In this document: piece by piece, positions 96-16,641 of the stretch
How positions within the stretch are numbered: the stretch's first letter is position 1
Layout: each line of letters starts with the position of its first letter
Origin: Thermoplasmatales archaeon SW_10_69_26
GTDB taxonomy: Archaea; Thermoplasmatota; SW-10-69-26
Length of the DNA stretch: 17,984 bases
Assembly (NCBI GenBank): GCA_003009755.1
Contig: PXUB01000013.1
Span: 1-17,984 of the forward strand
Direction of reading: 5' to 3'
Made by a program: the position numbers and the translations under genes
The notes under the pieces: model-generated
The model's database searches: none
What the model was told of the DNA's origin: nothing
Seen by the model: the letters and a program-made list of their open reading frames with translations, nothing else

Positions 96-2300
96 CTAGA
101 CCTGGAAGTCCACGGGCGTCGGAACGTCGGGCTTCATGCCCTTGCGCTCGCGGATCTCGGTGGTGATCTCGTCGAGCAGGTTGGCGGGCACGGGCGCGAA
201 GCCGGCCTGCTCGGTGCTCCAGAGGGCGCGGCCGCCGGTGGCCGAGCGGATCGCCGCGCTGAAGCCGAACATCTCGTCGACCGGCGCCTCGGCGTTGACG
301 ACCACGCTTTCGCCCTCGGACTCGATCTCGGCGATCGTGGAGCGGCGCTGCTGCAGCTCGCGGGTCACGTCGCCCATGATGTCCTGCGGGACGTTCACGT
401 AGACCTTCTGCCGCGGCTCGAGCAGGTCGACGCCGACGGCGGTCATCGCGCCGAAGATGGCGTTGCGGACCGCCGGGATCGTCTGCGAGGGGCCGCGGTG
501 GATGGCGTCCTCGTGGAGCTTGGCGTCCTTGAGGCGCACCTTGAGACCCATGCAGGGCTCGTCGGCGCGGGGGCCGCCGTCCATGGCTTCCTGGAAGCCC
601 TCCATGACGAGGTCCATCGTCTCGTAGAGGTACTGGACCCCCTTCGTGTCGTCGATGAACATGTTCGTCCCCTCGATCCACGACACGCTGCGAGCGTCGT
701 CGCGCTCCCAGCCGAGCTCGGTGAGGACCTCGCGGACCTCCTTCTCGTCCTGGTCGCGGATCTTGCCGTCCGGCAGCTCGCCTTCCCGGATCGCTTCCAT
801 GACCTCGGGCTCGAGGGGTTCGACCTCGAAGAACAGCCGGTTGTGGCGGTTCGGCGAGCGACCCTCGAACTCGGGCGTGGCCTCCGAGATCGACTCGCGG
901 TAGACCACGATCGGTTCGCTGGTCTGGATCTCGATGCCGTGCTCTTCCTTGATCCGGTGCTCGGTGACCTCCAGGTGGAGCTCCCCCATGCCGGACATCA
1001 GGTTCTCGCCCGTCTCCTGGTCGATCGACACCTGGATCGACGGGTCGGCCTTGGAGACCGAGCGCAGCGCCTTGACGAGCTTGGGCAGCTCGGCGACGTT
1101 CTTGGCTTCGACGCTGACCGTCACGACCGGTTCGCTGACGTGGACGATCCGCTCGAAGGGCTCGACCTCCTTCTCCTCGGTGACGGTGCTGCCGGCGATG
1201 GCCTCGTCGAGACCGACGACGGCCGCCAGGTTCCCGGCGTCCACGCTGTCGACGTTGACGCGGTCGGCGCCGACCATGACTCCGACGTCCTGGATGCGGT
1301 GCTCGCCGGCCACGCCGGAGATGTAGACCTGTTGGCCGCGTTCGATCTGACCGGAGAACATCCGGCCCACGGCGACCTCGCCGGCGTGCTCGTCCATCAC
1401 GATCTTGGTGACCATGAAGGACAGCGGGCCCTGCTCGTCGCAGTTGACGAGGCTCTGGCCGTACTCGCTTTCGGGATCGCCGCGCCAGATGTGCGGGATC
1501 CGGTACTTCTGGGCCTCGTCCGGCGGCGGCATGTGCTTGACGACGATGTTCAACATGACGTCCGCCAGCGGGCACTCCTTGATCAGCTCGCGAACCTCGT
1601 CGTTCTCCAGCCGGTTGTAGACGTGCTCCATCGAGTAGCCCGTCTGCTGGATCCAGGGGATCGAGACCGCCCAGTTGTACAGCGCCGATCCGAAGGCGAC
1701 GGTGCCGTCGTCGGGGCTGACCTGCCACTCCTCGGCCAGCTCGTCGTTGGGCGCGTACTTGCGGATGAGCTCGTTGACCTCCCGGATGATCTTGAAGAAC
1801 TTCTGCTGCATCTCATCCGGGCCGATCTTCACCTCGTTGATGAGGCGGTCGACCTTGTTGATGAACAGGATCGGCTTGCCCTTCTCGCGGAGCGCCTGCC
1901 GGATGACGGTCTCCGTCTGCGGCATGACGCTCTCGACCGCGTCGACCACGACCACGGCGCCGTCGATGGCGCGCATGGCGCGGGTCACGTCCCCGCCGAA
2001 GTCCACGTGGCCGGGCGTGTCGAAGAGGTTGATGAGGTAGTCGTCCTCCTCGTACTCGTGCACCATCGACAGCGCCGCGCTGTCGATCGTGATGCCTCGC
2101 TCCTGCTCCTGCTCGTCGAAGTCCATGACGAGCTGCTCGCCCGCCAGCTCTTCCGACATCATGCCGGCGCCCGCGATCAGGTTGTCCGAGAAGGTGGTCT
2201 TCCCGTGGTCGATGTGGGCCGCCGTCCCGATGTTGCGGATGAACTCGGGATTGTCCATGATGTCTCGTGCGCGCTTGATGTTCTCCTCTTTCCGGCCCAT
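96..2300 (-). CDS. fusA: Archaeal translation elongation factor EF-2 (734 aa)
   Basis: G1 AHIDHGKTT, RGITI, DTPGHVDF, NKVD and the diphthamide loop HEDAIHRG are present. Start moved from 2492 to ATG 2300 (MGRKEENIKR), which follows an AGGTGG SD-like sequence at 2305-2310. Confidence 0.98.
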   Translation of the reverse strand: MGRKEENIKRARDIMDNPEFIRNIGTAAHIDHGKTTFSDNLIAGAGMMSEELAGEQLVMDFDEQEQERGITIDSAALSMVHEYEEDDYLINLFDTPGHVDFGGDVTRAMRAIDGAVVVVDAVESVMPQTETVIRQALREKGKPILFINKVDRLINEVKIGPDEMQQKFFKIIREVNELIRKYAPNDELAEEWQVSPDDGTVAFGSALYNWAVSIPWIQQTGYSMEHVYNRLENDEVRELIKECPLADVMLNIVVKHMPPPDEAQKYRIPHIWRGDPESEYGQSLVNCDEQGPLSFMVTKIVMDEHAGEVAVGRMFSGQIERGQQVYISGVAGEHRIQDVGVMVGADRVNVDSVDAGNLAAVVGLDEAIAGSTVTEEKEVEPFERIVHVSEPVVTVSVEAKNVAELPKLVKALRSVSKADPSIQVSIDQETGENLMSGMGELHLEVTEHRIKEEHGIEIQTSEPIVVYRESISEATPEFEGRSPNRHNRLFFEVEPLEPEVMEAIREGELPDGKIRDQDEKEVREVLTELGWERDDARSVSWIEGTNMFIDDTKGVQYLYETMDLVMEGFQEAMDGGPRADEPCMGLKVRLKDAKLHEDAIHRGPSQTIPAVRNAIFGAMTAVGVDLLEPRQKVYVNVPQDIMGDVTRELQQRRSTIAEIESEGESVVVNAEAPVDEMFGFSAAIRSATGGRALWSTEQAGFAPVPANLLDEITTEIRERKGMKPDVPTPVDFQV

Positions 2301-2374
2301 GAATCCACCTTGTGCGTCGGATCCGGGTCGAAGGAAGCTCGAGCCCGGCGTCGTCCTTGACCAAGGAAGCGTGG

Positions 2375-2381
2375 TATAAAA
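2375..2381 (-). promoter_or_regulatory. Putative archaeal TATA box (TTTTATA) for EF-2
   Basis: AT-rich TTTTATA in a GC-rich context about 75 nt upstream of the EF-2 start. Confidence 0.65.
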
Positions 2382-2449
2382 CTGTGACGAGGGTGACCGA
2401 GGATCTGGGCCGAGCGAGGCCAGCCGTGCACGTGGGGGCGGGTCGGGTG

Positions 2450-2643
2450 CCACGCGGTCGAGGCGCACGAGCTGCTCGACGCTGACGCGCAACCGCAGCG
2501 GCCCCCGGCCGCGTCCGGCTGGCGGGCCCCACGGCCCGCGCCGGGTCCCCGTCCTCGGCTTGCTCGTCGCCGGCCTCGGTGAGCGGCTTGGCGACCCGCC
2601 GCCGCGCCAGGCGGCCCTCGTCCATGACGAGCCCCCAGGTCAG
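2450..2643 (-). pseudogene. Probable decayed receiver-domain (CheY/CheB-REC-like) gene remnant
   Basis: The frame beginning CTG 2643, in the classic 4-bp NTGA overlap with the cheA stop, reads LTWGLVMDEGRLARRRVAKPLTEAGDEQAEDG. This resembles a REC N-terminus (VLVVDD..RR.L...L..AG.EV.EAEDG). Similarity is lost afterwards, so the left boundary is approximate. Confidence 0.4.
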
Positions 2644-4838: not shown

Positions 4839-4846
4839 CGTCCTCC

Positions 4847-6328
4847 TCACCTCATCGCATCCAAGCTGTCCGCGACCGCCTGCAGCTCGTCGACGAGCTG
4901 TTGGGCCCGCTCGTGGCGGTCGGCGGCCACGGTCACGCGCTCGCGGGTGCCCTCGATGTCGTCCTCGACGGCGTCCAACGCCTGAGCCTGATCGGCGGCG
5001 GCTTCCCGGACGGTGGCCGTCTGCTGTTGGGAATCCGCCAACCGATCGACGATCTGCTCCAGCCAGTCGTCGACGTCGTCGGCGCTCGTGCGGGTCTCCT
5101 CGATCGCTTTCCGCGTCCGCTCGATCACGACGGCCGCGGTCTCCGAGGACTCGTGGGCTTCGTCGGCGATCGCCTCCAGGGCCTGGGCTTCCGTCTTGGC
5201 TTGCTCGGCCAGGTCGCGGATCTCGGTGAGCTCGCCCGTGTCGGCGCCGGACCGGGAGGCGGCCACCGAGGCGTTGAGGGCGAGCACGTCGATCCGGTCC
5301 GCGGTGTCCGCCAACGTGTCCGCGGACCGCTCCAGGTGGTCGACCTCCTCGCTGACGTCGAGGATCTGCTCGGTGAACTCGCCCACGCCGTCCTCGACGT
5401 TCCCCAACCGTTCTCGGGTGCGGTCCACCCGGCGGCGGCCGTCCTCGGCCCAGCTTTCGACGGTGGTGGCCACCTGGCCTAAGGCGTCGACCTTCGCGTG
5501 GACGTCCCGGGCTTGGGCTTGCAACTGCGCCAGGTGGTCCTCGATCGCTAGGGTGGTCTCCTGCTCGGCGTTCACCCGCCCCCTTGCGTCCTCGAGGACC
5601 GTCTCGAGATCCGCCAACCGTTCCTCGAGGGTCCCCGCATCGCGCTCCAGGTCGCGGTCGATCGTGTTCACCGTCCGATACCCGACCACCGCGGACGTCA
5701 GCGCGGCCGCCAGCGACCCCCACAGGATCGCCTGATCCAGGTCGCTGTGCTGCTCGTGGATGGCCTCCCGCTGGTCGTTGAGGATCTGGCGTTCGCGATC
5801 GACCAACCGTCCCAGGGCGGCTTCGGTCCTCGTCCGCGCCTGGCTGGCCTGCGAGCCCGTCAGCCGGGCCTGGGCTGCGGTCTCGTTGCCGGCCTCCATG
5901 TCGTCTTGGGCTCGCCGCACGAGCTCGATGTAGGCGGTCGCGTTCTCCTGCATCTCGACGAACGTCGACTGCCGTTCGGGATCGTCGAAGGGTTGGTCGA
6001 CCTCGTCGACCTGCATCTGGAAGGTCGTGATCTGGGACTCCAACCGGCTCCGGTTCTGCGTCTCGCCCGTCATGACGTACGTGTGGCTGGCCTCCACGAC
6101 CCCCAAGAACGCCCGTTTGAGCTCGATCATCCCGGTCAAGCTGCGACGCTGCTCCTCCACGCGGTCCTCGGCCTCCCCGATCTGGTCCGTCTGCGCGTTC
6201 ATCAGGATCGCGCCGGCGAGGAGGAAGACGATCGGCAACCCGACCGCCACGGCCATCTGCCGGTCGAACGACCACCCTTCGAGCCAACCGCTCCCGTCGC
6301 GACCGCTGGCGCGATCGTCACTGGCCAC
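4847..6328 (-). CDS. Methyl-accepting chemotaxis-like membrane receptor (2 TM, CHASE3/4-helix-like sensor, degenerate signalling tip), about 493 aa
   Basis: TM1 MAVAVGLPIVFLLAGAILM and TM2 AILWGSLAAALTSAVVGY flank a helical extracellular region. A long acidic coiled coil carries IDVLALNASVAASRSG. Probable GTG start at 6328, 4 nt after the cheW stop. Confidence 0.88.
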   Translation of the reverse strand: MASDDRASGRDGSGWLEGWSFDRQMAVAVGLPIVFLLAGAILMNAQTDQIGEAEDRVEEQRRSLTGMIELKRAFLGVVEASHTYVMTGETQNRSRLESQITTFQMQVDEVDQPFDDPERQSTFVEMQENATAYIELVRRAQDDMEAGNETAAQARLTGSQASQARTRTEAALGRLVDRERQILNDQREAIHEQHSDLDQAILWGSLAAALTSAVVGYRTVNTIDRDLERDAGTLEERLADLETVLEDARGRVNAEQETTLAIEDHLAQLQAQARDVHAKVDALGQVATTVESWAEDGRRRVDRTRERLGNVEDGVGEFTEQILDVSEEVDHLERSADTLADTADRIDVLALNASVAASRSGADTGELTEIRDLAEQAKTEAQALEAIADEAHESSETAAVVIERTRKAIEETRTSADDVDDWLEQIVDRLADSQQQTATVREAAADQAQALDAVEDDIEGTRERVTVAADRHERAQQLVDELQAVADSLDAMR

Positions 6329-6332
6329 GGTG

Positions 6333-7328
6333 TCAGGCCCCCCGGATCCGCACCATGGTTCTCGCGGCCAACACCTGGAGAGGGTCGACGAGCGGCACCG
6401 CCTGGCCGTCGCGATCGAGCTGCCCCAACACCCCGGGCTGGTCCGGTGAGCCATCGATGCTCCCCTCGTCGAGGGGGACCGTCTGCCGGACCTCGTCGAC
6501 GGCCACCGCGGCGGGCTCCGAGGGGGGGTCGACCAAGGCCGCCAGAGCCACGTCGCGTCGGTCGACGGGGGAGAACCCCAACAGCGGGGCCAGGTCCACG
6601 ACGCCCACGATCTCCCCCCGGTGGTTGGCCAGGCCGAGCACGTGGTCGGGGGTCGTCGGGACCGGCGTCAACCGACCCAACCGGACGAACTCCTGCACGG
6701 GATCGACCAAGAGCGCGACCGTGTTGCCCGCCAGGCTGGCCAGCACCGCCAGCCGCTCCGGCTCGACCGGCGGGGCCATCGGGGCCACGGTCGGGTCCCG
6801 GCGGCGACCCAGCTCGGCCAGCTCCGCCTCGTCGAACCCGCTGAACAGGTCCTCGACGGAGACGGTCGGCTCGACGCTGTCGGCCCGGGCGGCCAACGCC
6901 TCCAGCTCGAGGACGTCGGCCGAGCGCTCCCCGAGGCGGATCGCGCCTCGGATCGGAGCCTCGTGCGAGGCCTCGATCGCCGTGTCCTCCGGGGCCGACA
7001 CGATGGTGTGAACCTCGGTGGCCACGAGGGCGAAGCGCCGGTCGCCGGCCTCCACGTCGACGAGGCGATGGTCGAGCGTGTAGGCCTCGGGTCGTCGGCC
7101 GAAGCACAGATCGACGTCGAGCACGGGGACCACCTCCTCGCCCACGTGCGCGTCCCCGATCCAGCCGCCGTGGCCGTTACCCGCTCCCGAAAACACCACC
7201 AGCCCCAGAACCTGACGGACGTGTCGTGCCGGCACCGCGTAGCGCCCCTCGCTCGTGCCGAACACGAGCAACGGTCCGAGGTCGTTCACCCCCCGTCCCT
7301 CCCGCGGCGTGAGGCCGTCCCAGGCCAT
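6333..7328 (-). CDS. cheW: Tandem (two-domain) CheW-like coupling protein
   Basis: Domain 1: LLVFG...YAVP...V..VL...GEEVVPVLDV. Domain 2: LTPVPTTPDHVLGLANHRGEIVGVVDL. It lies directly upstream of the MCP and CheA. An alternative GTG start exists at 7289. Confidence 0.88.
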   Translation of the reverse strand: MAWDGLTPREGRGVNDLGPLLVFGTSEGRYAVPARHVRQVLGLVVFSGAGNGHGGWIGDAHVGEEVVPVLDVDLCFGRRPEAYTLDHRLVDVEAGDRRFALVATEVHTIVSAPEDTAIEASHEAPIRGAIRLGERSADVLELEALAARADSVEPTVSVEDLFSGFDEAELAELGRRRDPTVAPMAPPVEPERLAVLASLAGNTVALLVDPVQEFVRLGRLTPVPTTPDHVLGLANHRGEIVGVVDLAPLLGFSPVDRRDVALAALVDPPSEPAAVAVDEVRQTVPLDEGSIDGSPDQPGVLGQLDRDGQAVPLVDPLQVLAARTMVRIRGA

Positions 7329-7559: not shown

Positions 7560-8048
7560 CGGTCTCTCGCGGGCTCCCTCTCTGCGATGACCGAGCGGAG
7601 CCAGACAGAGCATCGATCTCGCGCGGTACGCGCCGGGCTAGCGACGCGGTGGTCGCGACTCGTGCTCTCGCTGGGTCCTTCTCTGCGATCAGCGCGCGGA
7701 GGCTTTCGAGCGTCGAGCTCGTGTGGTATACGCCGAGCTAACGACGCTCGCGATTCAACCGAACCGGGCGGTGGTTGTCGGTTCGGGTTCTCGCGAACGT
7801 CGAGCTCGCGTGGTGTTCGCCGAGCTAGCGACGTTCGCGATCCGGACGAGGCGGCGATGCGTTAGACGAGTCTCGTCCTCTCGCTGGATCGGCTTGACCC
7901 AGCTAGCGCGCCGATCGGGGGGGTTTTCGACCATCGGCCCCGCGAAGTCTACGTCGGGGCAGCGATGGTCGAGATGCGCACGGCTCGGTCGATGCAGTCG
8001 ACGAGAGCCGTGCTCTCGCTGGGTCCTTCTCTGCAATCAGCGCGCGGA
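7560..8048. repeat. Repeat X: about 40-bp copies of the rps7 3' end and flank at 8009-8048, 7661-7700, 7560-7599 and a partial copy at 7874-7914
   Basis: 7661-7700 and 8009-8048 match 39/40 (cgtgctctcgctgggtccttctctgc[g/a]atcagcgcgcgga). 7560-7599 matches the 7661 copy 32/40. 7874-7914 matches at both ends (15/17 and 9/10) with a diverged middle. Confidence 0.9.
7610..7972. repeat. Repeat Y: four bulged hairpins of identical architecture at 7610-7647, 7707-7750, 7791-7840 and 7927-7972
   Basis: Each has outer stem / 6-bp inner stem / 12-nt core / inner stem' / 2-nt A(G/A) bulge / outer stem'. 7711-7754 and 7798-7841 match 39/44. The first copy has a mismatch in each stem. Confidence 0.85.
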
Positions 8049-8699
8049 CCCAGCGACCCGCTCGACCTCGTTCTTCTTGTTGACCGCGTAGCTGTCCTGG
8101 GAGTCGTTGGCTGCGTCGAGCAGCTCCTGAGCCAGGCAGAGGTGCACCGGCGTCTTGTTCTTGTAGCTGGTCTGCATGACGCCCTTCGTCAGGTTGCGCA
8201 GCGCCCAGTCGACGCGGCGGGAGGGAGCGGTGTCGACGGCCTTGGGCACGCTGATGCCGCCGTAGCGCAGACGGGTGACCTCCTCGCGCGGCGCCGCGTT
8301 CTGCAGCGCGTCGACGAGGATCTGCAGCGGGTTCGTGTCGGTCTCCTCCGCGATGTGGGCAAAGGCGTCCTCGATGACGCCGATCGCCTTCGTCTTCTTG
8401 CCCGTGTACTCCTCGGTGCGCATCAGCTGGTTGGCGAACCGCTCGACGATGTTGACCTCGGACTTTCCGAACCACTCGTTCGCGTGGCGGGCGCCCGTGT
8501 GGACGCTGAACTGGCCGCTGAGGTTGACGTAGCGGGCCAGCCCGCGATCCTCGATCACGACGTCGCTGGGGTCCCAGCGGTCGAAGAGGTAGTCACCGAT
8601 GGCCGATCCCTCGGTGTCGGGACCCATCGGGACGACGGGGTCGGGTTCTTCGTGGGCGAGTTCCTCGGTTTCCTCGGTCTCGGCTTCTTCCTCGGCCAC
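8037..8699 (-). CDS. rps7: 30S ribosomal protein S7 (uS7), archaeal type, with acidic N-terminal extension
   Basis: IVERFAN.LMR, NPLQILVDAL.NAAPREE, PKAVDTAPSRRVD, ELLDAAN, KKNEVERVA.SAR. GTG start at 8699 follows GGTGA, which overlaps the rps12 stop. Confidence 0.97.
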   Translation of the reverse strand: MAEEEAETEETEELAHEEPDPVVPMGPDTEGSAIGDYLFDRWDPSDVVIEDRGLARYVNLSGQFSVHTGARHANEWFGKSEVNIVERFANQLMRTEEYTGKKTKAIGVIEDAFAHIAEETDTNPLQILVDALQNAAPREEVTRLRYGGISVPKAVDTAPSRRVDWALRNLTKGVMQTSYKNKTPVHLCLAQELLDAANDSQDSYAVNKKNEVERVAGSAR

Positions 8700-8703
8700 G
8701 CGA

Positions 8704-9132
8704 TCACCGCATCGGTTTCTCCTTCTTCCCGAGCACGAGCTCCTCGAGGGAGACACCGTTGACCTTGACGACCTTGAACCGCACGCCCGGGATGTCCCCG
8801 TACGAGCGACCCATGGCGCCGCCGATGCCCTCGATGAGGACCTCGTCGTGCTCGTCGATGAAGTTGATGGCGCCGTCACCCACGCAGAAGGCGGTGACTT
8901 GACGCCCGTTCTTGATGAGTTGGACCTTCACGCACTTCCGGATGGCGGAGTTCGGCTGCTTGGCCTCGATCCCGACCTTCTCGATCACGATACCCCGGCC
9001 TTGGGGCGCGCCACCGAGCGGGTCAGCCTTGTCGCGGAGGTTCTCCGCGCGGCGTTTGTAGTGTCGGTCGGACCAGCGGAACTTCTTCCGGTCCTTCTTC
9101 AGCTTGCGTGCAGCGTTCAATCCGTTCGCCAT
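8704..9132 (-). CDS. rps12: 30S ribosomal protein S12 (uS12), archaeal type, 142 aa
   Basis: [23 protein letters not shown] and [13 protein letters not shown] are present. Start ATG 9132 ([11 protein letters not shown]) with a GGTGA SD. Confidence 0.98.
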
Positions 9133-9205
9133 CGGATGGTCACCCTCGCCCCGGGTGGACAGACGTCCCTCGGGGCCATCGTGGAACCAGGCAAAGAAGG
9201 TCCTG

Positions 9206-9211
9206 TATAAA
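9206..9211 (-). promoter_or_regulatory. Putative TATA box (TTTATA) with BRE-like CGCAAA upstream, for rps12-rps7
   Basis: The minus strand reads cgcaaaccTTTATAcagg, about 75 nt upstream of the rps12 start, the same spacing as for EF-2. Confidence 0.7.
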
Positions 9212-9419
9212 GGTTTGCGGGTGGGTTCCTGGCGGGCTGTCTCGTTAAGCAGGGGCCGCGAAGGACACGAAGGATCGCCAAGGCCACGAAGGGCCTGTGA
9301 CTCGCCGCCGGGCGGCTTTGTCACGGCAGCTGCTCGCCTTTGTGCCCTGGCGTCCCTTCGCGTACTTGGTGGTCCCCCCCCCGTTTCTTATCCTTACAGC
9401 GCGGGTGCGGGCCGACCTG

Positions 9420-10037
9420 TCACGGGTCCTCCCCGTGCTCGGCGATCAGCTGGCGCCCCCGGTCGGCGCACTCGGGGTACGCCTCGGCCAGCTCGGTGCC
9501 GAGGAACGCCTCGATCTCCTCCAACCGCTCTCGCGTGCGCTTGACCGCGTGGTCGTCGTCGGCCGGGGCGTTGCCCTGCACCTTCTCGTGGCCTTCCCGC
9601 CATCCCTCTGGGAAGTACCACACTTTGTACCAGCGGGCGCCGGCTCGCCACAACAGGTACCCCAGGGCCGTGCAGGCCGGGGGCACGTCCACGCTCAGGG
9701 CTCGCAGCGAGGCCGGATGCCCGTCGCAGGACACCATCACGTAGCTGCCGGGCAACAGCACGGTGCCCAGCTCCTCGAACAGCTCGATCTGCTCCTCCCA
9801 CGTGAGCGCCTCGCCGTCGGTCTCGCCCCCGACCCAGGGCCGGTAGCGGACCTCCAGCCACGGATGCCGCCAGGCGGTCCCGGGGTTCGTCTGCCCCTCG
9901 AAGAGCCGCCATCGGGCGCCCGCACGGTGGGCCTCCACTCGCACGGGATGGGGGCTGGACTCGTCGCTTTCCTCCTCCACGCTCAGATCCATGCCAGCGA
10001 CGGTCACGCCATCGAGCTTGTCGAGGGGAAGGCGCAC
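9420..10037 (-). CDS. DUF1122-like protein (about 205 aa)
   Basis: PWLEV, T.LG.LL..AG.RWYK.WYFPEG.REG..KVQG resembles the DUF1122 signature. Probable GTG start at 10037 with GTGAGG upstream. Confidence 0.75.
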   Translation of the reverse strand: MRLPLDKLDGVTVAGMDLSVEEESDESSPHPVRVEAHRAGARWRLFEGQTNPGTAWRHPWLEVRYRPWVGGETDGEALTWEEQIELFEELGTVLLPGSYVMVSCDGHPASLRALSVDVPPACTALGYLLWRAGARWYKVWYFPEGWREGHEKVQGNAPADDDHAVKRTRERLEEIEAFLGTELAEAYPECADRGRQLIAEHGEDP

Positions 10038-10186
10038 GTCGCCCTCACGTGCGCGCGGCGAAAGAAGTTTGGCCCCCGCCCAAGCCGACGCTTGGCGAGC
10101 CCAACCGCGGCCGTGCCACGGAATCCCCCGCGGATGTGAGCAGGAGGTCACCCGGAGGAGGCAGGACGTGCGGTATCGGGCCCGTC

Positions 10187-10192
10187 TTTTAT
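10187..10192 (+). promoter_or_regulatory. Putative TATA box (TTTTAT) for fbp, probably a leaderless transcript
   Basis: Lies about 28 nt upstream of ATG 10220, with no SD between. Confidence 0.55.
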
Positions 10193-10219
10193 CTACCGCC
10201 GGTCTATGTCCGGTCAACC

Positions 10220-11389
10220 ATGACGGAGGTCACCGCCAGCATCATCAAGTGCGACGTCGGGGGATGGCCGGGCCATTCGACGACGCACCCGGACCTCGAG
10301 GAGACCGCCCGCGAGCAGTTGGCCGACGCCAGCAACGCCGGCGCGATCGAGGACTTCCACGTCACGCACGTGGGCGACGATCTGAACCTGATCATGCTCC
10401 ACCGCGAGGGTGCGGACGCCGAGGCCGTCCACAGCCTCGCCTACGACGTCTTCGAGGAGGCGACCGAGGTCGCCAAGGAACTGGGCCTGTACGGCGCCGG
10501 CCAGGACCTGCTCTCCGACGCGTTCAGCGGCAACGTCCGCGGCATGGGTCCCGGCGTCGCCGAGATGTCGTTCACCAAGCGCACCAGCGAGCCGATCCTC
10601 GCCTTCCTGATGGACAAGACGGAGCCGGGCGCGTTCAACCTGCCCATCTACAAGATGTTCGCCGACCCGTTCAGCACGGCCGGGCTCGTCATCGATCCCA
10701 ACCTCCACCAGGGCTTCCGCTTCGAGGTCTGGGACATCCAGGAGCACGAGCGCGTGTTCCTCGAGACGCCCGAGGACAGCTACAAGCTGCTGGCCCTCAT
10801 CGGCGCCAAGGAGCGCTTCGTGATCAAGCGCGTCTACCCCAAGGAGGCGCACAAGCTGCCCAGCGACGAACCGGTCGTCGCCGTCAGCACGGAGAAGCTC
10901 GTCGACGTCGCCGGCGAGTACGTCGGCAAGGACGATCCGGTCGCGCTCGTCCGCGCGCAATCGGGCCTGCCCGCCGTCGGCGAGGTCCTCGAACCGTTCA
11001 GCTTCCCCCACCTCGTCAGCGGGTGGATGCGCGGCTCGCACAACGGTCCGATCATGCCCGTCGGCGTCGAGGACGCGGACTGCACCCGCTTCGACGGTCC
11101 GCCCCGCGTCGTCGGCCTCGGCTTCAACGTCCACAACGAGCTCGAGCTCACCGGTCCCGTCGACCACTTCGACGACCCGGCCTTCGACAACGCTCGCGAG
11201 AAGGCCAACGAGGTGACCGACTACATGCGCCAGCACGGCCCCTTCGAGCCGCATCGGCTCCCGCTCGAGGAGATGGAGTACACGACGCTGCCCGGCATCC
11301 TCGAGTCCCTCGAGGGCCAGTGGCACTCCGTCGACGCGGAGGCCTCCGAGGTCGACGCCGAGACCGTCACCGTCGGCGAGGTCGAGTGA
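10220..11389 (+). CDS. fbp: Bifunctional fructose-1,6-bisphosphate aldolase/phosphatase (class V FBPase), 389 aa
   Basis: IKCDVGG.PGH, GDD, LYGAGQDLLSDAFSGNVRGMGPG.AE, DKTEPGAFN, YVGKDDP (Schiff-base Lys), GWMRGSH, GPFEPHRL and EYT are all present. Confidence 0.97.
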   Translation: MTEVTASIIKCDVGGWPGHSTTHPDLEETAREQLADASNAGAIEDFHVTHVGDDLNLIMLHREGADAEAVHSLAYDVFEEATEVAKELGLYGAGQDLLSDAFSGNVRGMGPGVAEMSFTKRTSEPILAFLMDKTEPGAFNLPIYKMFADPFSTAGLVIDPNLHQGFRFEVWDIQEHERVFLETPEDSYKLLALIGAKERFVIKRVYPKEAHKLPSDEPVVAVSTEKLVDVAGEYVGKDDPVALVRAQSGLPAVGEVLEPFSFPHLVSGWMRGSHNGPIMPVGVEDADCTRFDGPPRVVGLGFNVHNELELTGPVDHFDDPAFDNAREKANEVTDYMRQHGPFEPHRLPLEEMEYTTLPGILESLEGQWHSVDAEASEVDAETVTVGEVE

Positions 11390-11421
11390 CGAACGGCATC
11401 CAGAGCGCGTTCGTCACTCGA
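11382..11421 (+). terminator. Perfect 14-bp inverted repeat spanning the fbp stop codon (possible 3'-end structure)
   Basis: tcgagtgacgaacg (11382-11395) pairs with cgttcgtcactcga (11408-11421). There is no U-tract, so terminator function is uncertain. Confidence 0.4.
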
Positions 11422-11464
11422 GACCGCGGCCGGGCGCCTACGTGCGGCGAGCGGCCGTGCGAAT

Positions 11465-11510
11465 CACGAGCATCCCTGGCCCGGTGAAGACCGCGGGCCG
11501 GATGCTCGTG
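11465..11510. repeat. Fifth Y-type bulged hairpin, inverted relative to the rps7 array
   Basis: cacgagcatcc-CT-ggcccg-gtgaagaccg-cgggcc-ggatgctcgtg. The reverse complement has the same outer stem, 6-bp stem and AG bulge, with a 10-nt core. Confidence 0.65.
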
Positions 11511-11735
11511 GTCGAGGGATGCCCGAGGTCGAGTAACAGCCGACGACCCACGCATGGCTCGCACTCGTGAGACCGAGTCTCCTCAACCCAGCCCCGCCTC
11601 GGTCGGACCGCGAGGATCGCTCGTCCGGCGTCCACCGCTCGGCCTCGATGGTCGCGAGATCCCGAACCGACCGCGAGCCGCGTGTGGCGTGCCTGGGCCT
11701 TGGTCGGGTGTCCGCGGTCGGCCCAGGCTCGACGA

Positions 11736-11981
11736 TCAGGCCGAGCTCGTGTCCGTCTCGTCGATGACCTCCTCACCGAGATCCTCACCTAACGGCTCCT
11801 CGCCCCCCTCCTCGTCGGCTCGCTCCTCGAAGTAGGCCACCACCGCCTCCTCCACCATCTCGGAGACCGTGGTCCCGGTGAGGATCTTCAGGCTGTGGAG
11901 CTTGAGGTGCAACCGCTTCGGCAGCGACACCTTCATCGTCTTGTCCTCGTCGAGATCCATGTCGTCGTCGCGAATGTCCAT
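11736..11981 (-). CDS. Small ribbon-helix-helix (CopG/ParG-like) DNA-binding protein with acidic tails, 81 aa
   Basis: KTMKVSLPKRLHLKLHSLKILTGTTVSEMVEEAVVAYFE fits a beta-alpha-alpha pattern. SD GGAGG(GTG) lies upstream. Confidence 0.7.
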   Translation of the reverse strand: MDIRDDDMDLDEDKTMKVSLPKRLHLKLHSLKILTGTTVSEMVEEAVVAYFEERADEEGGEEPLGEDLGEEVIDETDTSSA

Positions 11982-12154
11982 GTAACACCCTCCACGGGAG
12001 GTCCGGGCGACGGGCCCAGCGGATGCCTATCCTCCTGTGTCAGTACAGTCCAGTTACCGCCAACGACGGCCGAACATCTCCCCAGGCCATCGTCCCTCCG
12101 ACCGAGCCGGACCCACACCCCACGCCGGCCCCCACCTGCCAGTGCACGACGGGG

Positions 12155-12625
12155 TCAGTCCAGGTTCGGGAGCTTGACGACCTGAACCCAGTAGAGGCCC
12201 AGCTCGTGGATCGTCGCGATGAACGTCTTCACGTCCATCGGTTTCGTGATGAACCCGGCGGCCTGGAGCTCGTAGCTTTTGCGGAGATCGTCCTCGTCGT
12301 CGGAGGTGGTGAGGATGACCACGGGGATCTCCTGTAGCTCGGGATCGTCCTTGACGCGAGCCAACAGCTCGTGGCCACCCACGCGGGGCAGGTTGAGATC
12401 GAGCAAGATCAGCTCGGGACGGCTGGCCTCCTCGTAGCCGTCCTCGCGATGGAGGTAAGCCAAGGCCTCGTCCCCGTCGCGGAGCACGGTCACGTCGTTG
12501 GCGATCCGCATCGTCGCCAGCCCCTCCTCGACCAGGCGCACGTCGCCGGGGTTGTCCTCGACGAGGAGGATCTCGATCGGTTCGGAGCCGGTGAGCTCGT
12601 CCTCGACGTCCAGGTCACCGGTCAC
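12155..12625 (-). CDS. Single-domain response regulator (Rcp1-like receiver), 156 aa
   Basis: ILLVEDNPGD, ILLDLNLPRVGG, IPVVILTTS and ITKP are present. The GTG start at 12625 overlaps the kinase stop (GTGA). Confidence 0.93.
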   Translation of the reverse strand: MTGDLDVEDELTGSEPIEILLVEDNPGDVRLVEEGLATMRIANDVTVLRDGDEALAYLHREDGYEEASRPELILLDLNLPRVGGHELLARVKDDPELQEIPVVILTTSDDEDDLRKSYELQAAGFITKPMDVKTFIATIHELGLYWVQVVKLPNLD

Positions 12626-14376
12626 GTCGACGCCCCCTCGGCGGCTGGCATCGTGAAGTGGAACGCCGAGCCCTCGCCCGGCTCGCTGTCGACCCAGATC
12701 TCGCCACCGTGGCGGTCGACGATCTGTTCGCAGATCGCCAGCCCGATCCCGGTGCCGCCGGTCCCGTCGCCGATGCGATGGAACACCTCGAAGATCTCCT
12801 CGGTGGCCTCGCTCGGGATGCCGACGCCCTCGTCGTCGACGGTGAACCGCCACCGTTGTTCCTCGCGGACGGCGTGGACGTGGATGCACGGGGCCTGGTC
12901 GCCGCTGTACTCCAGCGCGTTGGAGACGAGGTTGCGGAACACCTGGGCCAGCTGGTCGGGGTCGGCTTGCACGGTCGGCAGGTCCTCGACGGTGAGGCGC
13001 GCCCCGGTCTCCTCGATCTTGACCTCGAGGTCGGCGAGGGCGTCCTCGAGGACCCCGTGGGCGTCCACGGGCTGGGGCTCGCGGCTCTCGGTCTGCACGC
13101 GGGCGTACGTCAGCAGGCTGTCGATCAGGCGCTTCATGCGGTGGGCGCCCTCGCGAGCCTGACCGAGCAGGTCGCGGCCGTCCGGGTCCAAGTCCTCACC
13201 GTGGCGGTCGTCGAGAAGCTGCAGGTAGCTGGTGATCGTGCGCAGGGGCTCTTGCAGGTCGTGGCTGGCGGCGTAGGCGAACTGCTCGAGGCGACGGTTG
13301 GTGGCTTCGAGCCGTTGCTCGTACCGTCGGCGATCCGTCAGGTCCCGGATGACCTTCGAGAACCCCTGCAGCTCTCCGTCCTCGTCGTGGAGGGCCGTCA
13401 TCGTCATCTTGGCCCAGAACCGCGAGCCGTCCTTGCGCACCTGCCAGGCTTCCTCCTCGACGCTGCCCCGGTCTTCAGCTTCGCGGATCGAGCGCTCGGG
13501 GCGGCCCGCCCGACGGTCCTCCTCTGTGAAGAACGTCGAGAAGTGCTCGCCGAGGATCTGATCCTCGGTGTAGCCGATCATCGTCTCGGCGCCGACGTTC
13601 CACGTCTGGATATGGCCCTCGGGATCGCAGCTGAAGATCGCGTACTCCTCGACCTGCTGGACGAGGGTCTCGAAGCGGCGCTTCTCCTCCTCGAGCTGGC
13701 GTTGGCTGCGTTGGCGGTGGACCGCCTGACTCAGCACGCGAGCCATCGCCTGCACGAACCTGGCGTCGTGTCGGTCGAAGGAACGCGGCTCGCGCGCTCG
13801 GACGCTGAAGATCCCCCAGGCGTCCTCGGGCGCGGGGACGACGACGGCGATGCTGCTCTGCACGTCGAGCTCCGCGAACAACGGCGGTCGACGGAACCGA
13901 TCCTCTTGCTCGTAGTCGTCGACGATCGTGGCGTCCCAGTTGCGGATCGTGTGCCCGGCCTGGGTCCCAGCGTCGACCGAGAGGTGCGCCTGGCCGACCT
14001 GTGCCGACGGCCAGCCGGTGCCCGCCGCCAACACGAGGTCTCCGGTCTCGGGATCGAGCTGGAACACGTCGCTGTAGTCGGCCTCGAGAACGGCCGCGGT
14101 CCGCCGGCACAGCTCCTCGGCGAGGTCCGGGAGGCCGCGGCGCTGGAGCGCGAACCGGCTGATCTCCTGCAAGGCCGACTGCTGGGCCAGCCGATCCTCC
14201 AGTTCGGCGGTCCGCTGCTCGACGCGGTGCTCGAGCTCGGCGGCGAGCTGCTCGAGCTCCTGCTGACGGTCGTAGAGATCCCGGGTCGAGGCCTCGGCGA
14301 TGCGTTCGGCCTCCTTGCGGCGCTGGCTTTCGCGCTCGGCCCGCCGCTGCAGCCGGGACATCGTCTCCTCAGCCAC
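12622..14376 (-). CDS. Cytoplasmic sensor histidine kinase (coiled coil-GAF-PAS-HisKA-HATPase), 584 aa
   Basis: H-box ASHDLQEPLR, N-box NLVSNA, DEGVGI and GTGIGLAIC are present. PAS: WNVGAE..GY...I.G, RKDGSRFWA. A GAF-like segment precedes it. No TM segment. The start overlaps the H-NOX 3' end. Confidence 0.95.
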   Translation of the reverse strand: MAEETMSRLQRRAERESQRRKEAERIAEASTRDLYDRQQELEQLAAELEHRVEQRTAELEDRLAQQSALQEISRFALQRRGLPDLAEELCRRTAAVLEADYSDVFQLDPETGDLVLAAGTGWPSAQVGQAHLSVDAGTQAGHTIRNWDATIVDDYEQEDRFRRPPLFAELDVQSSIAVVVPAPEDAWGIFSVRAREPRSFDRHDARFVQAMARVLSQAVHRQRSQRQLEEEKRRFETLVQQVEEYAIFSCDPEGHIQTWNVGAETMIGYTEDQILGEHFSTFFTEEDRRAGRPERSIREAEDRGSVEEEAWQVRKDGSRFWAKMTMTALHDEDGELQGFSKVIRDLTDRRRYEQRLEATNRRLEQFAYAASHDLQEPLRTITSYLQLLDDRHGEDLDPDGRDLLGQAREGAHRMKRLIDSLLTYARVQTESREPQPVDAHGVLEDALADLEVKIEETGARLTVEDLPTVQADPDQLAQVFRNLVSNALEYSGDQAPCIHVHAVREEQRWRFTVDDEGVGIPSEATEEIFEVFHRIGDGTGGTGIGLAICEQIVDRHGGEIWVDSEPGEGSAFHFTMPAAEGAST

Positions 14377-14941
14377 GGGCGTGGGCCTCCCGGCTCGTCG
14401 ATGCCTCGACCGTCAGCACGAGGTCACAGTAGCTGTCCCCCTCGTGCACGCAGCGGGGTTGCTGGACGCCGATCTCCTCCCCGTAGCGGTCGCCGGTGCC
14501 CAACAACAGACCCTCGGCGAACGAGCACAGGCCCCGCTCGGACTCGTAGCGCAGCGAGAGATCCCCGTCCTCGGGGTCCTCATCGAGGGCGAAGGTCGGG
14601 ACCTCGGCGCCCGGGTACAGCTTGCGGACCTCGGGGTGGATCACGTCGTTCAGCGTCAACGCGAACTCCCGCGTCGAGGTGTGAGGCTCGAACAGCTCGG
14701 GGTAGCGGTCCGCCAGCCGATGCAGCGCCCGGCGGCCGAACCACTGCTGGGCTCGCCGGCCGCTGTACCCGACGACGGGCTCGGCGGCTTGCAACAAGGT
14801 GACCAGCTGCTCGTAGGGATAGTTGCCCAGCGTCGTGTAGACGCCGTCGAGGCCCGCCTCCTCGAGGATCCGATCCCACGCGTCCATGCCGTGCTCGTCG
14901 ACGATCGTCTCCTCGAGCAACGTGAACACGATGCCCTTCAC
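14369..14941 (-). CDS. Heme nitric oxide/oxygen-binding (H-NOX/HNOB) protein, 190 aa
   Basis: MKGIVF start, G...W..I, Y...G.Y, FG, proximal His102 in IHPEVRKLYP, Pro115, YxSxR (YESER, 132-136), G144 and Cys139/164/172. GTG start with GAGGTGAG SD. Confidence 0.93.
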   Translation of the reverse strand: MKGIVFTLLEETIVDEHGMDAWDRILEEAGLDGVYTTLGNYPYEQLVTLLQAAEPVVGYSGRRAQQWFGRRALHRLADRYPELFEPHTSTREFALTLNDVIHPEVRKLYPGAEVPTFALDEDPEDGDLSLRYESERGLCSFAEGLLLGTGDRYGEEIGVQQPRCVHEGDSYCDLVLTVEASTSREAHARG

Positions 14942-15050
14942 TGGGTCTCACCTCGTCGAGCAGGCTCCCAGTGAACCGAGATGCCCTCGGCCATCGTGGG
15001 AAGTTGGCCCTCGCTGCCGTATCCCGGTTGGGCCGGGCGCACATCTGGGC

Positions 15051-16088
15051 CTAAGCGGTCAGCTCGGTCCCGCAGGCCGGGCAAAAGGTCCCGTCGGCGG
15101 GCGCTTGAGCCTCGCAGCCATCGCACGTCACCGTCGCCTGCGGGGTGTCGTCCGAGGAGAAGGCACAAGCCAGCGGGGTGGCCCTCGCGCTGGTCCACGC
15201 CGAGCAGGCGCCCAGCACGGCCAACCCGCCGACCACGGTCGCGATGCCGCCGGCGAGCACGAACGCGTACCCGACCGAGGCGCCGGCGCCCAGGCTAGAG
15301 AACAGCGTCCAGGGCGTCGTGCCCAGCCACCAGGCGGCGAACACGACCTCGCCCAAGCCCCACACGAGGCCGCCCAGCGCCACGCCCAACGCCACCCCGG
15401 CGCGGCCACGGGCATCCCCGCGCACGAACGGTAAGACGGTGGCGGCCAAGGTCGCGACGAGGTAGCCGCTGACGTGCACCGCCTCCCCGTACCGGAAGAC
15501 GATCTCGGCCCCGAACCGCGAGGCGTTCGTGATCGAGCCGGGGACGGTGGCCACGCCTCCGAGCAGCAACCCGCTGGCGACCAGGCCCAACACGCCGGCC
15601 GACAACGAGGGCCCGGTGCGGTCCGGGCGGTACAGGTTCAACGCCAGCAGGCCGAACAGGCCCGCGAGGACGAGGACCACGCCGCCGCCGATCGCTTGCC
15701 CCGAGCCGCCGCCGGTCATCATCTGGAAGATCCCGATGACGAGCCACAGCGTCGCGAACAGCGTTGCGGGCTTCGCCAGCGAGACCGGTTCGTCCTCGGA
15801 GAAGAGGTGCAAGGCCAGCGGCAGCAGGGAGGCGCCGAGCACGACGAGCGTCGACGCCGTCGCCAGGTGGAACAGGAACGAGAACACGCCGCGGGGGTCG
15901 TCGAGCCCGCCCAGCGCCGTTAGCCGCCAGATGCCGTTGCCCGTGCCCACGAGGATCAGGCCAAGTCCGACCGCGAACGCCGCAACCGCGCCCAACCGGC
16001 GGGCCAGATCCCGCGAGCGGTCCACCCAAGCCTGCTCGTCGCTCGACAGCTCCACGCTCGCGGGGTCCCCAGCCTCGACTGCCATCAC
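15051..16088 (-). CDS. Multi-pass membrane protein with C-terminal zinc ribbon
   Basis: Roughly nine to ten hydrophobic Gly/Ala/Leu-rich segments, then CDGC...FCPACG. A TTTATC box at 16111-16116 lies about 25 nt upstream. Confidence 0.8.
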   Translation of the reverse strand: MMAVEAGDPASVELSSDEQAWVDRSRDLARRLGAVAAFAVGLGLILVGTGNGIWRLTALGGLDDPRGVFSFLFHLATASTLVVLGASLLPLALHLFSEDEPVSLAKPATLFATLWLVIGIFQMMTGGGSGQAIGGGVVLVLAGLFGLLALNLYRPDRTGPSLSAGVLGLVASGLLLGGVATVPGSITNASRFGAEIVFRYGEAVHVSGYLVATLAATVLPFVRGDARGRAGVALGVALGGLVWGLGEVVFAAWWLGTTPWTLFSSLGAGASVGYAFVLAGGIATVVGGLAVLGACSAWTSARATPLACAFSSDDTPQATVTCDGCEAQAPADGTFCPACGTELTA

Positions 16089-16201
16089 GCCCCGAACATC
16101 GCCCGGTGAGGATAAAGGCCCGGGATGCCGGATCGCGCCCTCCGCGGCGAAGATGTTCCCTCGCCAGGCAACCTAACCACCGGAGGCGGGCTGACCCGTT
16201 C

Positions 16202-16549
16202 ATGGCCTTGACCGAGCTCCAGATGGGGTCCGAGATCGAAAGCTGCCTCGACAACTGCTTCGAAGCCTCGCAAGCGGCCGAGAAGTGCGCCAACCACTGC
16301 ATCGAGATGGGCGAAGCCGACCGGTCTCGCTGCATCGAGCTCTGCCAGGACGTCGCCGACCTCACCAGCCTCCACGCCCGCATGATGGCCCGCGACTCCG
16401 AGTACCACAACGAGATGGCCGCCGTGTGCGCAGACCTGTGCGAGACCTGCGCCGACGAGTGCGAGCAGTTCGACGGCCCGATCCCGCAGACGTGCGCCCA
16501 GGCCTGCCGCACGTGCGCCGCGTCCTGCCGGCAGATGGCGGGGGCTTGA
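16202..16549 (+). CDS. Cys-rich four-helix-bundle copper-binding/storage protein (Csp3/DUF326-like), 115 aa
   Basis: 14 Cys in CxxxC/CxxC repeats (CLDNC, CANHC, CIELC, CADLCETCADEC, CAQACRTCAASC). No signal peptide. Start ATG 16202. Confidence 0.88.
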   Translation: MALTELQMGSEIESCLDNCFEASQAAEKCANHCIEMGEADRSRCIELCQDVADLTSLHARMMARDSEYHNEMAAVCADLCETCADECEQFDGPIPQTCAQACRTCAASCRQMAGA

Positions 16550-16641
16550 TCGGGGGCCGAGACCAGCTGGCCCCTGCGCGGAAACGTGAAATGTCTAATC
16601 AGCGTAGACGTGCTTCGAGGACATGCAGCTGACCGATGGCG

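Follow-up and report, generated by a model that had tools for sequence, protein, structure and literature searches.

Can an archaeon sense nitric oxide (NO) through an H-NOX protein and a two-component partner, a form of signalling that has been studied in bacteria and animals? The question is raised by a stretch of DNA of 17,984 bases (the window), which is one entire contig (GenBank PXUB01000013.1) of the metagenome-assembled genome (MAG) of Thermoplasmatales archaeon SW_10_69_26; this genome, denoted G000, measures 2.82 Mb in 49 contigs, with an estimated completeness of ~95% and an estimated contamination of 2.19%. On its minus strand the window holds a compact three-protein system of a halophile, with which it can be asked whether archaea sense NO: a stand-alone H-NOX protein, a sensor histidine kinase and a single-domain receiver. 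The reading that we favor, and consider probable, is that these genes represent the bacterial H-NOX two-component paradigm in an archaeon and serve NO sensing with scavenged heme, the cassette having most likely been taken from bacteria by an ancestor of this halophilic, Thermoplasmatota-type family. The elements of the operon are as follows.

14369..14941, minus strand: H-NOX gene, 190 residues, GTG start (Pfam HNOB, 118.8 bits; matches to PDB 6ocv, 4u9b and 4u99)
14948..14954, minus strand: Shine-Dalgarno-like GAGGTGA, 6 nucleotides (nt) upstream of the H-NOX GTG, read from the sequence; putative function
12622..14376, minus strand: sensor histidine kinase gene, 584 residues (Pfam domains; motif positions)
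12155..12625, minus strand: stand-alone receiver gene, RcpA/Rcp1 type, 156 residues (Pfam Response_reg, 71.1 bits; PDB 1k68 and 1i3c)

A preliminary description of the locus, made from the sequence without database searches, had proposed three overlapping and translationally coupled genes, and this arrangement is recovered here: counted from its GTG, the kinase gene shares 8 nt with the end of the H-NOX gene (with the alternative ATG, at 14361, it would begin 7 nt past the H-NOX stop), and kinase and receiver share a 4-nt GTGA start/stop overlap. The H-NOX start can be fixed at its GTG because all the relatives in the alignment described below begin with MKGI(V/I)F. The kinase gene thus adjoins the H-NOX gene in the same orientation, as in HnoK-like systems.

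The first element covers positions 1-162 of the 163 of the HNOB profile (PF07700), with a score far above the cut-off of 25.5 bits, which confirms its preliminary assignment to this family; it is the only HNOB copy retrieved by a profile search of G000. Its best matches among solved structures are 6ocv (E 1.9e-24) and the NO sensor of Shewanella oneidensis (So; 4u9b/4u99/2kii, E 3e-24 to 8e-24), followed by the weaker matches of Nostoc H-NOX and soluble guanylate cyclase beta-1 (~1e-10 to 1e-8) and of the O2-binding Tt H-NOX (~1e-5). Conservation was evaluated in an alignment of 22 sequences, consisting of the window's protein and 21 relatives that are 51-75% identical. H102 lies opposite the proximal His103 of So H-NOX, while P115, Y132, S134 and R136 lie opposite their So counterparts; all of these are invariant in the alignment, as are G69, G144 and F141, and so each of the residues singled out in the preliminary description (proximal His, heme-distorting Pro, YxSxR, hinge glycines and Phe141) is present and invariant. 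F141 is located five residues past the Arg of YxSxR, and the aligned ranges (query 1-163, Tt H-NOX 1-162) place it opposite residue 140 of Tt H-NOX, the distal tyrosine that stabilizes O2. A distal position without Tyr is the sequence mark of the NO-selective, non-O2-binding subclass of H-NOX proteins. For the window's protein both NO selectivity and heme loading are predictions.

The same residues bear on the identity of the ligand. A different signal could be provided by oxidation of the ferrous heme by O2, or by binding of CO, in an oxic and light-exposed salt rock: an aerobic terminal oxidase is encoded in G000, and the available text of PMC7108781 reports that Fe(III) H-NOX of Vibrio cholerae (Vc) inhibits the kinase HnoK, and that the Fe(II) form of this protein reacts with O2. 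Nonetheless, with the distal Tyr absent, F141 invariant, and the closest solved relatives being NO-type proteins of facultative aerobes (E~1e-24) while Tt H-NOX is a far weaker match (E 1e-5), we consider O2 or CO sensing quite improbable.

The kinase and the receiver contain the full set of catalytic motifs. The regions recognized in the kinase are listed here from the N-terminus.

14251..14373, minus strand: N-terminal H-NOX-partner motif, kinase ~residues 2-42 (profile 54.7 bits, E 2.4e-14)
13717..14133, minus strand: GAF domain, residues 82-220 (Pfam GAF_2 36.9 and GAF 36.4 bits)
13333..13641, minus strand: PAS domain, residues 246-348 (Pfam PAS_9, 68.4 bits)
13090..13290, minus strand: HisKA dimerization/phospho-acceptor domain, residues 363-429 (Pfam HisKA, 48.6 bits; same coordinates in the genome search)
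12640..12963, minus strand: HATPase_c catalytic domain, residues 472-579 (Pfam HATPase_c, 103.6 bits)

The phospho-accepting His372 lies in the H-box, SHDLQEPL, and boxes N, G1 and G2 are present; a profile search of the entire genome returns 13 HisKA matches. In the receiver, Response_reg (residues 19-139) is the sole Pfam domain, with no output domain, and the acidic pocket (E23/D24), the phospho-accepting D76, T106/T107 and K128 are those of the RcpA/Rcp1 type; over about residues 15-153 the protein matches RcpA (1k68, E 4.4e-36, residues 18-153) and Rcp1 (1i3c, E 1.9e-35). The GAF and PAS domains, together with the Rcp-type partner, suggest a kinase lineage other than HnoK.

Residues 1-80 of the kinase match no Pfam family. 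An iterative search started from residues 1-62 recovered the same stretch in 59 of the 82 proteins called downstream of H-NOX genes at related loci, among both the GGDEF-EAL and the kinase types, the misses being mostly mis-called gene starts. In the 57-58 sequences used for conservation R20 is invariant, and R15, E16, R17, E22, A23, E24, I26, E28, R32 and L34 are conserved at 90% or more; the consensus is RL.RRL.RER.AR.EAE.IAER.TR.LY, with the core RER..R.EAE.IAE...R.LY. A 43-position profile of this motif was then compared with all six frames of 77 bacterial H-NOX loci (56 of which had contributed to the profile): 75 of them contain exactly one match, which in every case has the orientation of H-NOX and begins between -3 and +125 nt (median 42) past the H-NOX match. 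No further match occurs in these loci, and one of the two loci without the motif ends 31 nt past H-NOX. The resemblance of the kinase N-terminus to bacterial H-NOX partners, proposed on inspection, is in this way substantiated.

In 21 genomes of the window's class a single match was obtained in each of three: G000 (the window's kinase, E 2.4e-14), G001 (1.5e-13, in the kinase beside its H-NOX) and G020 (9.1e-11, ~90 nt downstream of its H-NOX). G004 has a weak match (0.006), and there is none in the other 17, which include three with an H-NOX of divergent type and all 14 that lack H-NOX; since these 21 genomes are kin, this co-occurrence does not constitute a statistical test. Searched against 1.84 billion representative proteins, the profile has 899 matches at E <= 0.001 and 78 at E <= 1e-10, and in 148 of the best 150 the motif starts within the first 40 residues. 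Eight full-length proteins with the motif have outputs of kinase, hybrid-kinase, HD-GYP or GGDEF type. The two of the best 150 without an N-terminal start (P0275 and P0174) were considered as possible fusions with H-NOX and discarded, as a Pfam scan found no family in either. Our search of the literature on an N-terminal coiled coil in H-NOX partners, at the level of listings and abstracts, returned nothing on this motif. A predicted complex of H-NOX with kinase residues 1-75 scored 0.16, against a mark of 0.32, and counts neither way.

Judged from its occurrence in these sequences, the motif specifically marks H-NOX partner proteins, and it represents a candidate contact or coupling helix with H-NOX. 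A more extensive proposal, which we put forward only tentatively, is that this N-terminal helix of ~40 residues might be a portable docking or coupling module with which a large and mostly uncultured clade of H-NOX proteins addresses kinase, GGDEF-EAL or HD-GYP outputs, that hypersaline archaea might have captured sensor and partner together, and that H-NOX in a heme-auxotrophic host might report the status of scavenged heme and oxidants in addition to NO. If true, the locus would encode a gas/redox sensor of archaea whose way of recognizing its partner we did not find described. The motif offers a handle on how H-NOX recognizes its partner, a question that extends to the bacterial systems, and it is the part of this locus with the most upside.

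Is the operon really archaeal? Its location among unambiguous archaeal genes, claimed in the preliminary description, is upheld by the following markers on the same contig.

96..2492, minus strand: archaeal elongation factor aEF-2 (TIGR00490, 1056.9 bits, cut-off 738); the listed open reading frame (ORF) is extended at the 5' end
8037..9324, minus strand: archaeal-type ribosomal proteins uS12 and uS7 (NF003254, 257.3 bits; NF003106, 253.8 bits); the listed ORFs are extended at the 5' end
10049..11389, plus strand: fructose-1,6-bisphosphate aldolase/phosphatase (FBPase), left neighbor of the operon (NF041126, 562 bits; PF01950, 578.8 bits)

Both ribosomal proteins pass the archaeal/eukaryotic models, while the bacterial models stay under their cut-offs. 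The GC content is 0.65-0.73 across the whole contig, and its values at the three codon positions (GC1/GC2/GC3) in H-NOX (0.71/0.43/0.93) and in the kinase (0.74/0.43/0.91) match those of the archaeal neighbors (0.67/0.38/0.94 in aEF-2; 0.69/0.43/0.93 in FBPase), which indicates that the operon is archaeal and not chimeric. The encoded proteins are acidic (D+E 18-23%, K+R 8-12%), a composition that fits our expectation for a salt-in halophile.

The continuity of the contig was evaluated in public sequencing runs. Five runs, from two studies and all labelled halite metagenome, contain the stretch; no RNA data set is among them. In X1, which is possibly the source of the assembly, Logan contigs tile positions 10800-16600 with zero differences and with breaks only at conserved receiver and H-box words. 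In the runs of the second study (X2 to X4) the contigs bridge four operon junctions with ~0-5 differences per 100 letters in the pieces listed.

X3 11949-12570 and X4 12122-12570: junction at the 3' end of the receiver gene
X2 12542-13279 and X3 12542-13142: kinase/receiver junction
X2 14289-14550 and X4 14314-14642: H-NOX/kinase junction
X3 14646-16024 and X4 14676-15280: junction between H-NOX and the upstream gene

Among the listed pieces, those of X1 alone connect the FBPase gene with 11.5 kb. A scan of metagenome contigs gave 60 loci with relatives, none of them above 55% identity, although records close to the window's genome may be excluded from this set by design. We considered the possibility that the operon is bacterial DNA misjoined to an archaeal contig or misbinned. 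The nearest non-archaeal relatives are indeed bacterial (45-56% identity), and G000 is a MAG with some estimated contamination; however, the archaeal markers lie on the same contig with uniform codon-position GC, the X1 contigs tile the region without differences, the junctions are bridged in a second study, and H-NOX and kinase alike have their nearest homologues in archaeal MAGs of the same family, where one copy lies beside Gins51 and PriS. This explanation is extremely improbable, and we reject it: the comparison with the contigs of these runs shows no chimera, and the H-NOX operon is part of a genuinely archaeal contig.

The next question is where such a cassette came from. In a protein database, 2,095 relatives of the window's H-NOX were identified at E <= 1e-5 among 2,545 candidates, and in a collection of contigs with one genome per species 209 stretches encode a relative. 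Our comparison of loci is based on the best 80 of these, 3 archaeal and 77 bacterial. The three best matches (62, 59 and 56% identity) belong to two MAGs, G001 and G004, of Thermoplasmata/Thermoplasmatales archaea of the window's family. The bacterial loci, at 45-56% identity, are distributed among Thermoleophilia and other Actinomycetota, Chloroflexota, Acidobacteriota, Planctomycetota, Pseudomonadota, Verrucomicrobiota, Myxococcota, Rhodothermota, Nitrospirota and Armatimonadota. One of the G001 copies, on a contig of 154.8 kb, is flanked by a malate/lactate dehydrogenase gene on one side and by the genes for Gins51 and the primase PriS on the other, and therefore archaeal H-NOX genes are no artefact of the window's contig.

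Whole-genome profile searches found HNOB genes in 7 of 21 genomes of the window's class (including G000). For the phylum the figure is 22 out of 401 genomes sampled, among them 9 of the 262 of high quality, and the genes occur in 14 of 162 genera. Among 14 control genomes only Caulobacter has one; there is none in Haloferax volcanii, Methanosarcina acetivorans, Sulfolobus acidocaldarius or Methanocaldococcus jannaschii.

In a quick maximum-likelihood tree (95 rows, 184 columns, midpoint root, no bootstraps) the window's protein clusters with three copies from the same family (SH-aLRT 90), and a third, very long-branched G001 copy joins them at 88. This archaeal group is nested in a larger one of 83 rows (support 85), in which 77 rows are bacterial and represent about ten phyla. 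The G020 protein pairs with a bacterial copy (81), whereas the copies of family f28 (8 rows, support 100) and those of G012, G015 and G017 (support 99) form separate and distant groups; the archaeal label changes at least three times on the tree, and archaeal H-NOX proteins fall in at least three separate sequence groups. We consider it likely, from this topology, that the window's H-NOX clade is of bacterial origin, because the clade spans about ten bacterial phyla and is present in just 3 of 6 genomes of one archaeal family.

The genes located downstream of H-NOX were classified for 82 loci and the window (n = 83). The domains of their products include GAF_2 (55 proteins), GGDEF (40), EAL (36), HisKA and HATPase_c (33 each), REC (19) and Hpt (9); GGDEF-EAL enzymes and histidine kinases are the two classical classes of H-NOX partners. 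The order of the window (H-NOX, kinase, receiver) recurs in 5 of the 77 bacterial loci (L051, L068, L072, L077, L078), with receivers 44-52% and kinase cores 42-47% identical to those of the window. The archaeal neighborhoods are varied. In G001 a kinase with motif, GAF, HisKA and HATPase but no PAS, 44-47% identical, lies upstream of H-NOX; in G020 H-NOX is followed by a PAS kinase, and in G015 by a PAS-kinase-REC hybrid; two archaeal copies are orphans. Both the phylogeny and the neighborhood survey proposed with the preliminary description are thereby answered, with the archaeal clade nested among bacterial sequences and with several partners.

Two of the more distant archaeal types deserve mention in their own right. 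The third type (L083, L085 and L087, in G012, G015 and G017) is 28-31% identical to the window's protein and keeps the His, Pro, YxSxR and Cys motifs; downstream lie kinases of PAS-HisKA-HATPase architecture, in one case fused to a receiver, and the N-terminal partner motif was not found in them. The f28 type (L092-L100) was found in 9 of the 58 genomes sampled from that family, whose sizes are ~1.7-2.0 Mb. The closest solved structures for L095, the one copy tested, are 6bde (E 1.7e-38) and 6ocv. In L095 and L099 the H-NOX gene is followed by a gene of ~205 codons (L095:794-1411, L099:2056-2682) whose product has no Pfam family and may be an unrecognized partner.

If the probable reading, NO sensing with scavenged heme, is translated into a mechanism, the following sequence of events can be proposed. 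The 190-residue H-NOX would bind heme b through His102, the heme being scavenged because no tetrapyrrole synthesis gene was found in the assembly. With Phe141 instead of the distal Tyr, the ferrous heme would bind NO, and possibly CO, without forming a stable O2 complex. NO would break the Fe-His102 bond, the heme strained by Pro115 would relax, and the subdomains would pivot about Gly69 and Gly144. The altered surface of H-NOX would act on the co-translated kinase, with the conserved N-terminal helix as the candidate coupling element, and autophosphorylation at His372 would change, as would phosphotransfer to Asp76 of the receiver. In the bacterial precedents the change is an inhibition (according to the accessible text of PMC7108781, Fe(II)-NO H-NOX inhibits kinase autophosphorylation in both So and Vc), and the receiver would then be less phosphorylated. 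The receiver would presumably act on its target through protein-protein contact. Further inputs may be supplied by the GAF and PAS domains of the kinase, and a second, oxidant-sensing mode by a zinc site formed by Cys139, Gln161, Cys164 and Cys172.

Several observations weigh against this reading. Heme binding, ligand selectivity, control of the kinase and phosphotransfer are all inferred from sequence, and the GAF and PAS domains of the kinase could be the real sensors. The correspondence of F141 with Tyr140 of Tt H-NOX depends on alignment ranges and on the residue numbering of the latter; the bacterial rows of the tree were selected for their closeness to the window's clade, and its root is only a midpoint; the count of 75 motif-bearing loci out of 77 is partly circular, given the loci that built the profile. 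No copper nitrite reductase of G000 scores over the cut-off, and any NO would have to be exogenous: NirK was examined as an internal source and dismissed (best match 94 bits, cut-off 296, with stops in one match). Finally, in the ~95% of the genome that is represented in G000 there is no match to ALAD/HemB, porphobilinogen deaminase/HemC, ferrochelatase or ChdC (PF00490, PF01379, PF00762 and PF06778, respectively), the archaeal Ahb genes not having been included in the search; the cofactor must then be imported, unless the heme genes sit in the missing ~5%.

As for the source of NO, denitrification is described as prevalent among haloarchaea of hypersaline systems in the abstract of PMC11218638, and haloarchaeal neighbors are a possible supply. 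The nitrite-reductase-like sequence of G000 is itself a curiosity: a fragment that resembles a multicopper or nitrite-reductase domain (G000:C1:44354-44869, L101), 94 bits to TIGR02376 and under the cut-off, with four in-frame stops, which may be a pseudogene.

The matter of heme is more consequential, as it raises the question of what a heme-dependent sensor does in a cell apparently unable to make heme. ALAD was detected in 9 of the 21 class genomes and not in some that are 97-99% complete, so a need for external heme or tetrapyrroles may be widespread in this lineage. G000 encodes one heme-copper oxidase subunit I (COX1, 538.9 bits), which means that the cell needs heme anyway; judging from its gene content, the organism looks like an aerobic or microaerobic heme auxotroph, which would have to load both its oxidase and its H-NOX with scavenged heme.

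The same facts can be read in another way, in which H-NOX is mostly heme-free and disulfides at the zinc site (Cys139/Cys164/Cys172/Gln161) control the kinase. C139, C164 and C172 align with the zinc cysteines of So H-NOX and Q161 with His161, the fourth ligand there; none of the four varies among the 22 sequences, which amounts to a zinc site of So/Vc type at the level of sequence. In the text of PMC7108781 available to us the So ligands are given as Cys139, Cys164, Cys172 and His161, the fourth is said to be kept as His or Gln (Gln171 in Vc), and heme-free Vc H-NOX is reported to respond reversibly to oxidation at this site and then to inhibit HnoK. The unmatched HemB, HemC, ferrochelatase and ChdC, and the restriction of ALAD to fewer than half of the class genomes, point in the same direction. 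Against such a redox sensor, the invariance of the heme-pocket residues (H102, P115, YxSxR) argues for selection on heme binding, the presence of a heme-copper oxidase implies that heme is obtained somehow, and genes missing from a MAG are no proof of absence. We judge it unlikely that the system works independently of heme, and note that oxidant sensing at the zinc site is compatible with NO sensing.

How does the system that we favor, an NO sensor in an archaeal two-component setting, compare with those already known? Like the So and Vc pairs of H-NOX and HnoK, it consists of a stand-alone H-NOX of ~180-190 residues encoded beside a cytoplasmic histidine kinase, and shares with them the proximal His, the Pro that strains the heme, YxSxR, the hinge glycines, the lack of a distal Tyr, and a zinc site of three Cys plus His or Gln. 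It differs from them in its archaeal host, in a kinase with N-terminal motif, GAF and PAS, in a modest identity to So H-NOX, and in its output, one Rcp1-type single-domain receiver instead of the HnoB/C/D set (REC-EAL, REC-HTH and REC-HD-GYP). HnoB is named in the available text of PMC7108781. With the uncharacterized H-NOX operons of Thermoleophilia, Chloroflexota, Acidobacteriota and other, mostly uncultured bacteria it has in common the H-NOX clade and the partner motif; the partners in those operons are mostly GGDEF-EAL proteins (40 of the 83 genes downstream of H-NOX, a total that includes the window's), and relative to them the kinase of the window is distinguished by an additional coiled-coil segment behind the motif, by a GAF of divergent sequence and by its PAS domain. 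The cyanobacterial phytochrome pairs Cph1/Rcp1 and CphA/RcpA resemble it in the type of receiver, in the sensor-HisKA-HATPase_c layout of the kinase and in the SHDLQEPL H-box, which we take to be typical of the Cph1 type; unlike Cph1, the kinase has no PHY or bilin-lyase domain detectable with Pfam, and the input is a separate H-NOX protein. Among archaea, MetOD1 is described as an output domain of methanogen response regulators, fused to REC and distantly similar to HNOB/V4R (Galperin et al. 2018, PMC5847659, in the part available to us), whereas the window's protein is a full HNOB member with all the heme residues.

In the accessible part of the same archaeal two-component census MetOD1 is the sole HNOB-like element, while its Dataset/Table S files may list archaeal HNOB proteins; our literature searches found no archaeal H-NOX system described, in agreement with the preliminary statement that no characterized example was known. 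The locus is not unique, given the HNOB genes found elsewhere in the class and the phylum; moreover, the window's H-NOX protein is already in NCBI, and public archaeal MAGs already hold such genes. The claim of an intact NO-selective pathway in an archaeon holds as far as the intact cassette, the complete set of heme-pocket residues, the missing distal Tyr and the archaeal contig are concerned; the kinase, which has GAF and PAS, and the receiver, which is RcpA/Rcp1-like, are not necessarily orthologues of HnoK and HnoB-D, and the system is not a lone case. Therefore the kind of system is known (a stand-alone H-NOX plus kinase), and what is new is the archaeal host and the combination of a motif-GAF-PAS kinase with an Rcp-type receiver in a probable heme auxotroph from halite. 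Archaea, in other words, hold intact versions of H-NOX signalling, of several sequence types and with several partners.

The remaining genes of the window are neighbors of the operon. A chemosensory cluster lies between the uS7 gene and aEF-2 (2640-7328, minus strand), where a protein with a pair of CheW domains (6333-7328) and a soluble, MCP-like one (4847-6454; MCPsignal, 38.3 bits) are encoded next to a CheA that combines Hpt, HATPase_c and CheW domains with a receiver at its C-terminus. As listed, the CheA ORF of 1215 residues (2640-6287) is too long at the 5' end, since Hpt begins at residue 492 and the GC3 signal in the preceding part follows the MCP frame. A DUF1122 protein (9420-10217, minus strand; 87.5 bits) is encoded between uS12 and the FBPase. 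Upstream of the operon, on the same strand and separated from H-NOX by 109 nt, 15051-16088 encodes a multi-pass membrane protein with no confident Pfam family and with a CxxC...CxxC zinc-ribbon-like tail. On the plus strand, the C-terminal part (~16240-16549) of an ORF at 15764-16549 weakly matches the Csp1 family of four-helix-bundle copper storage proteins (TIGR04401, 38.7 bits, cut-off 100).

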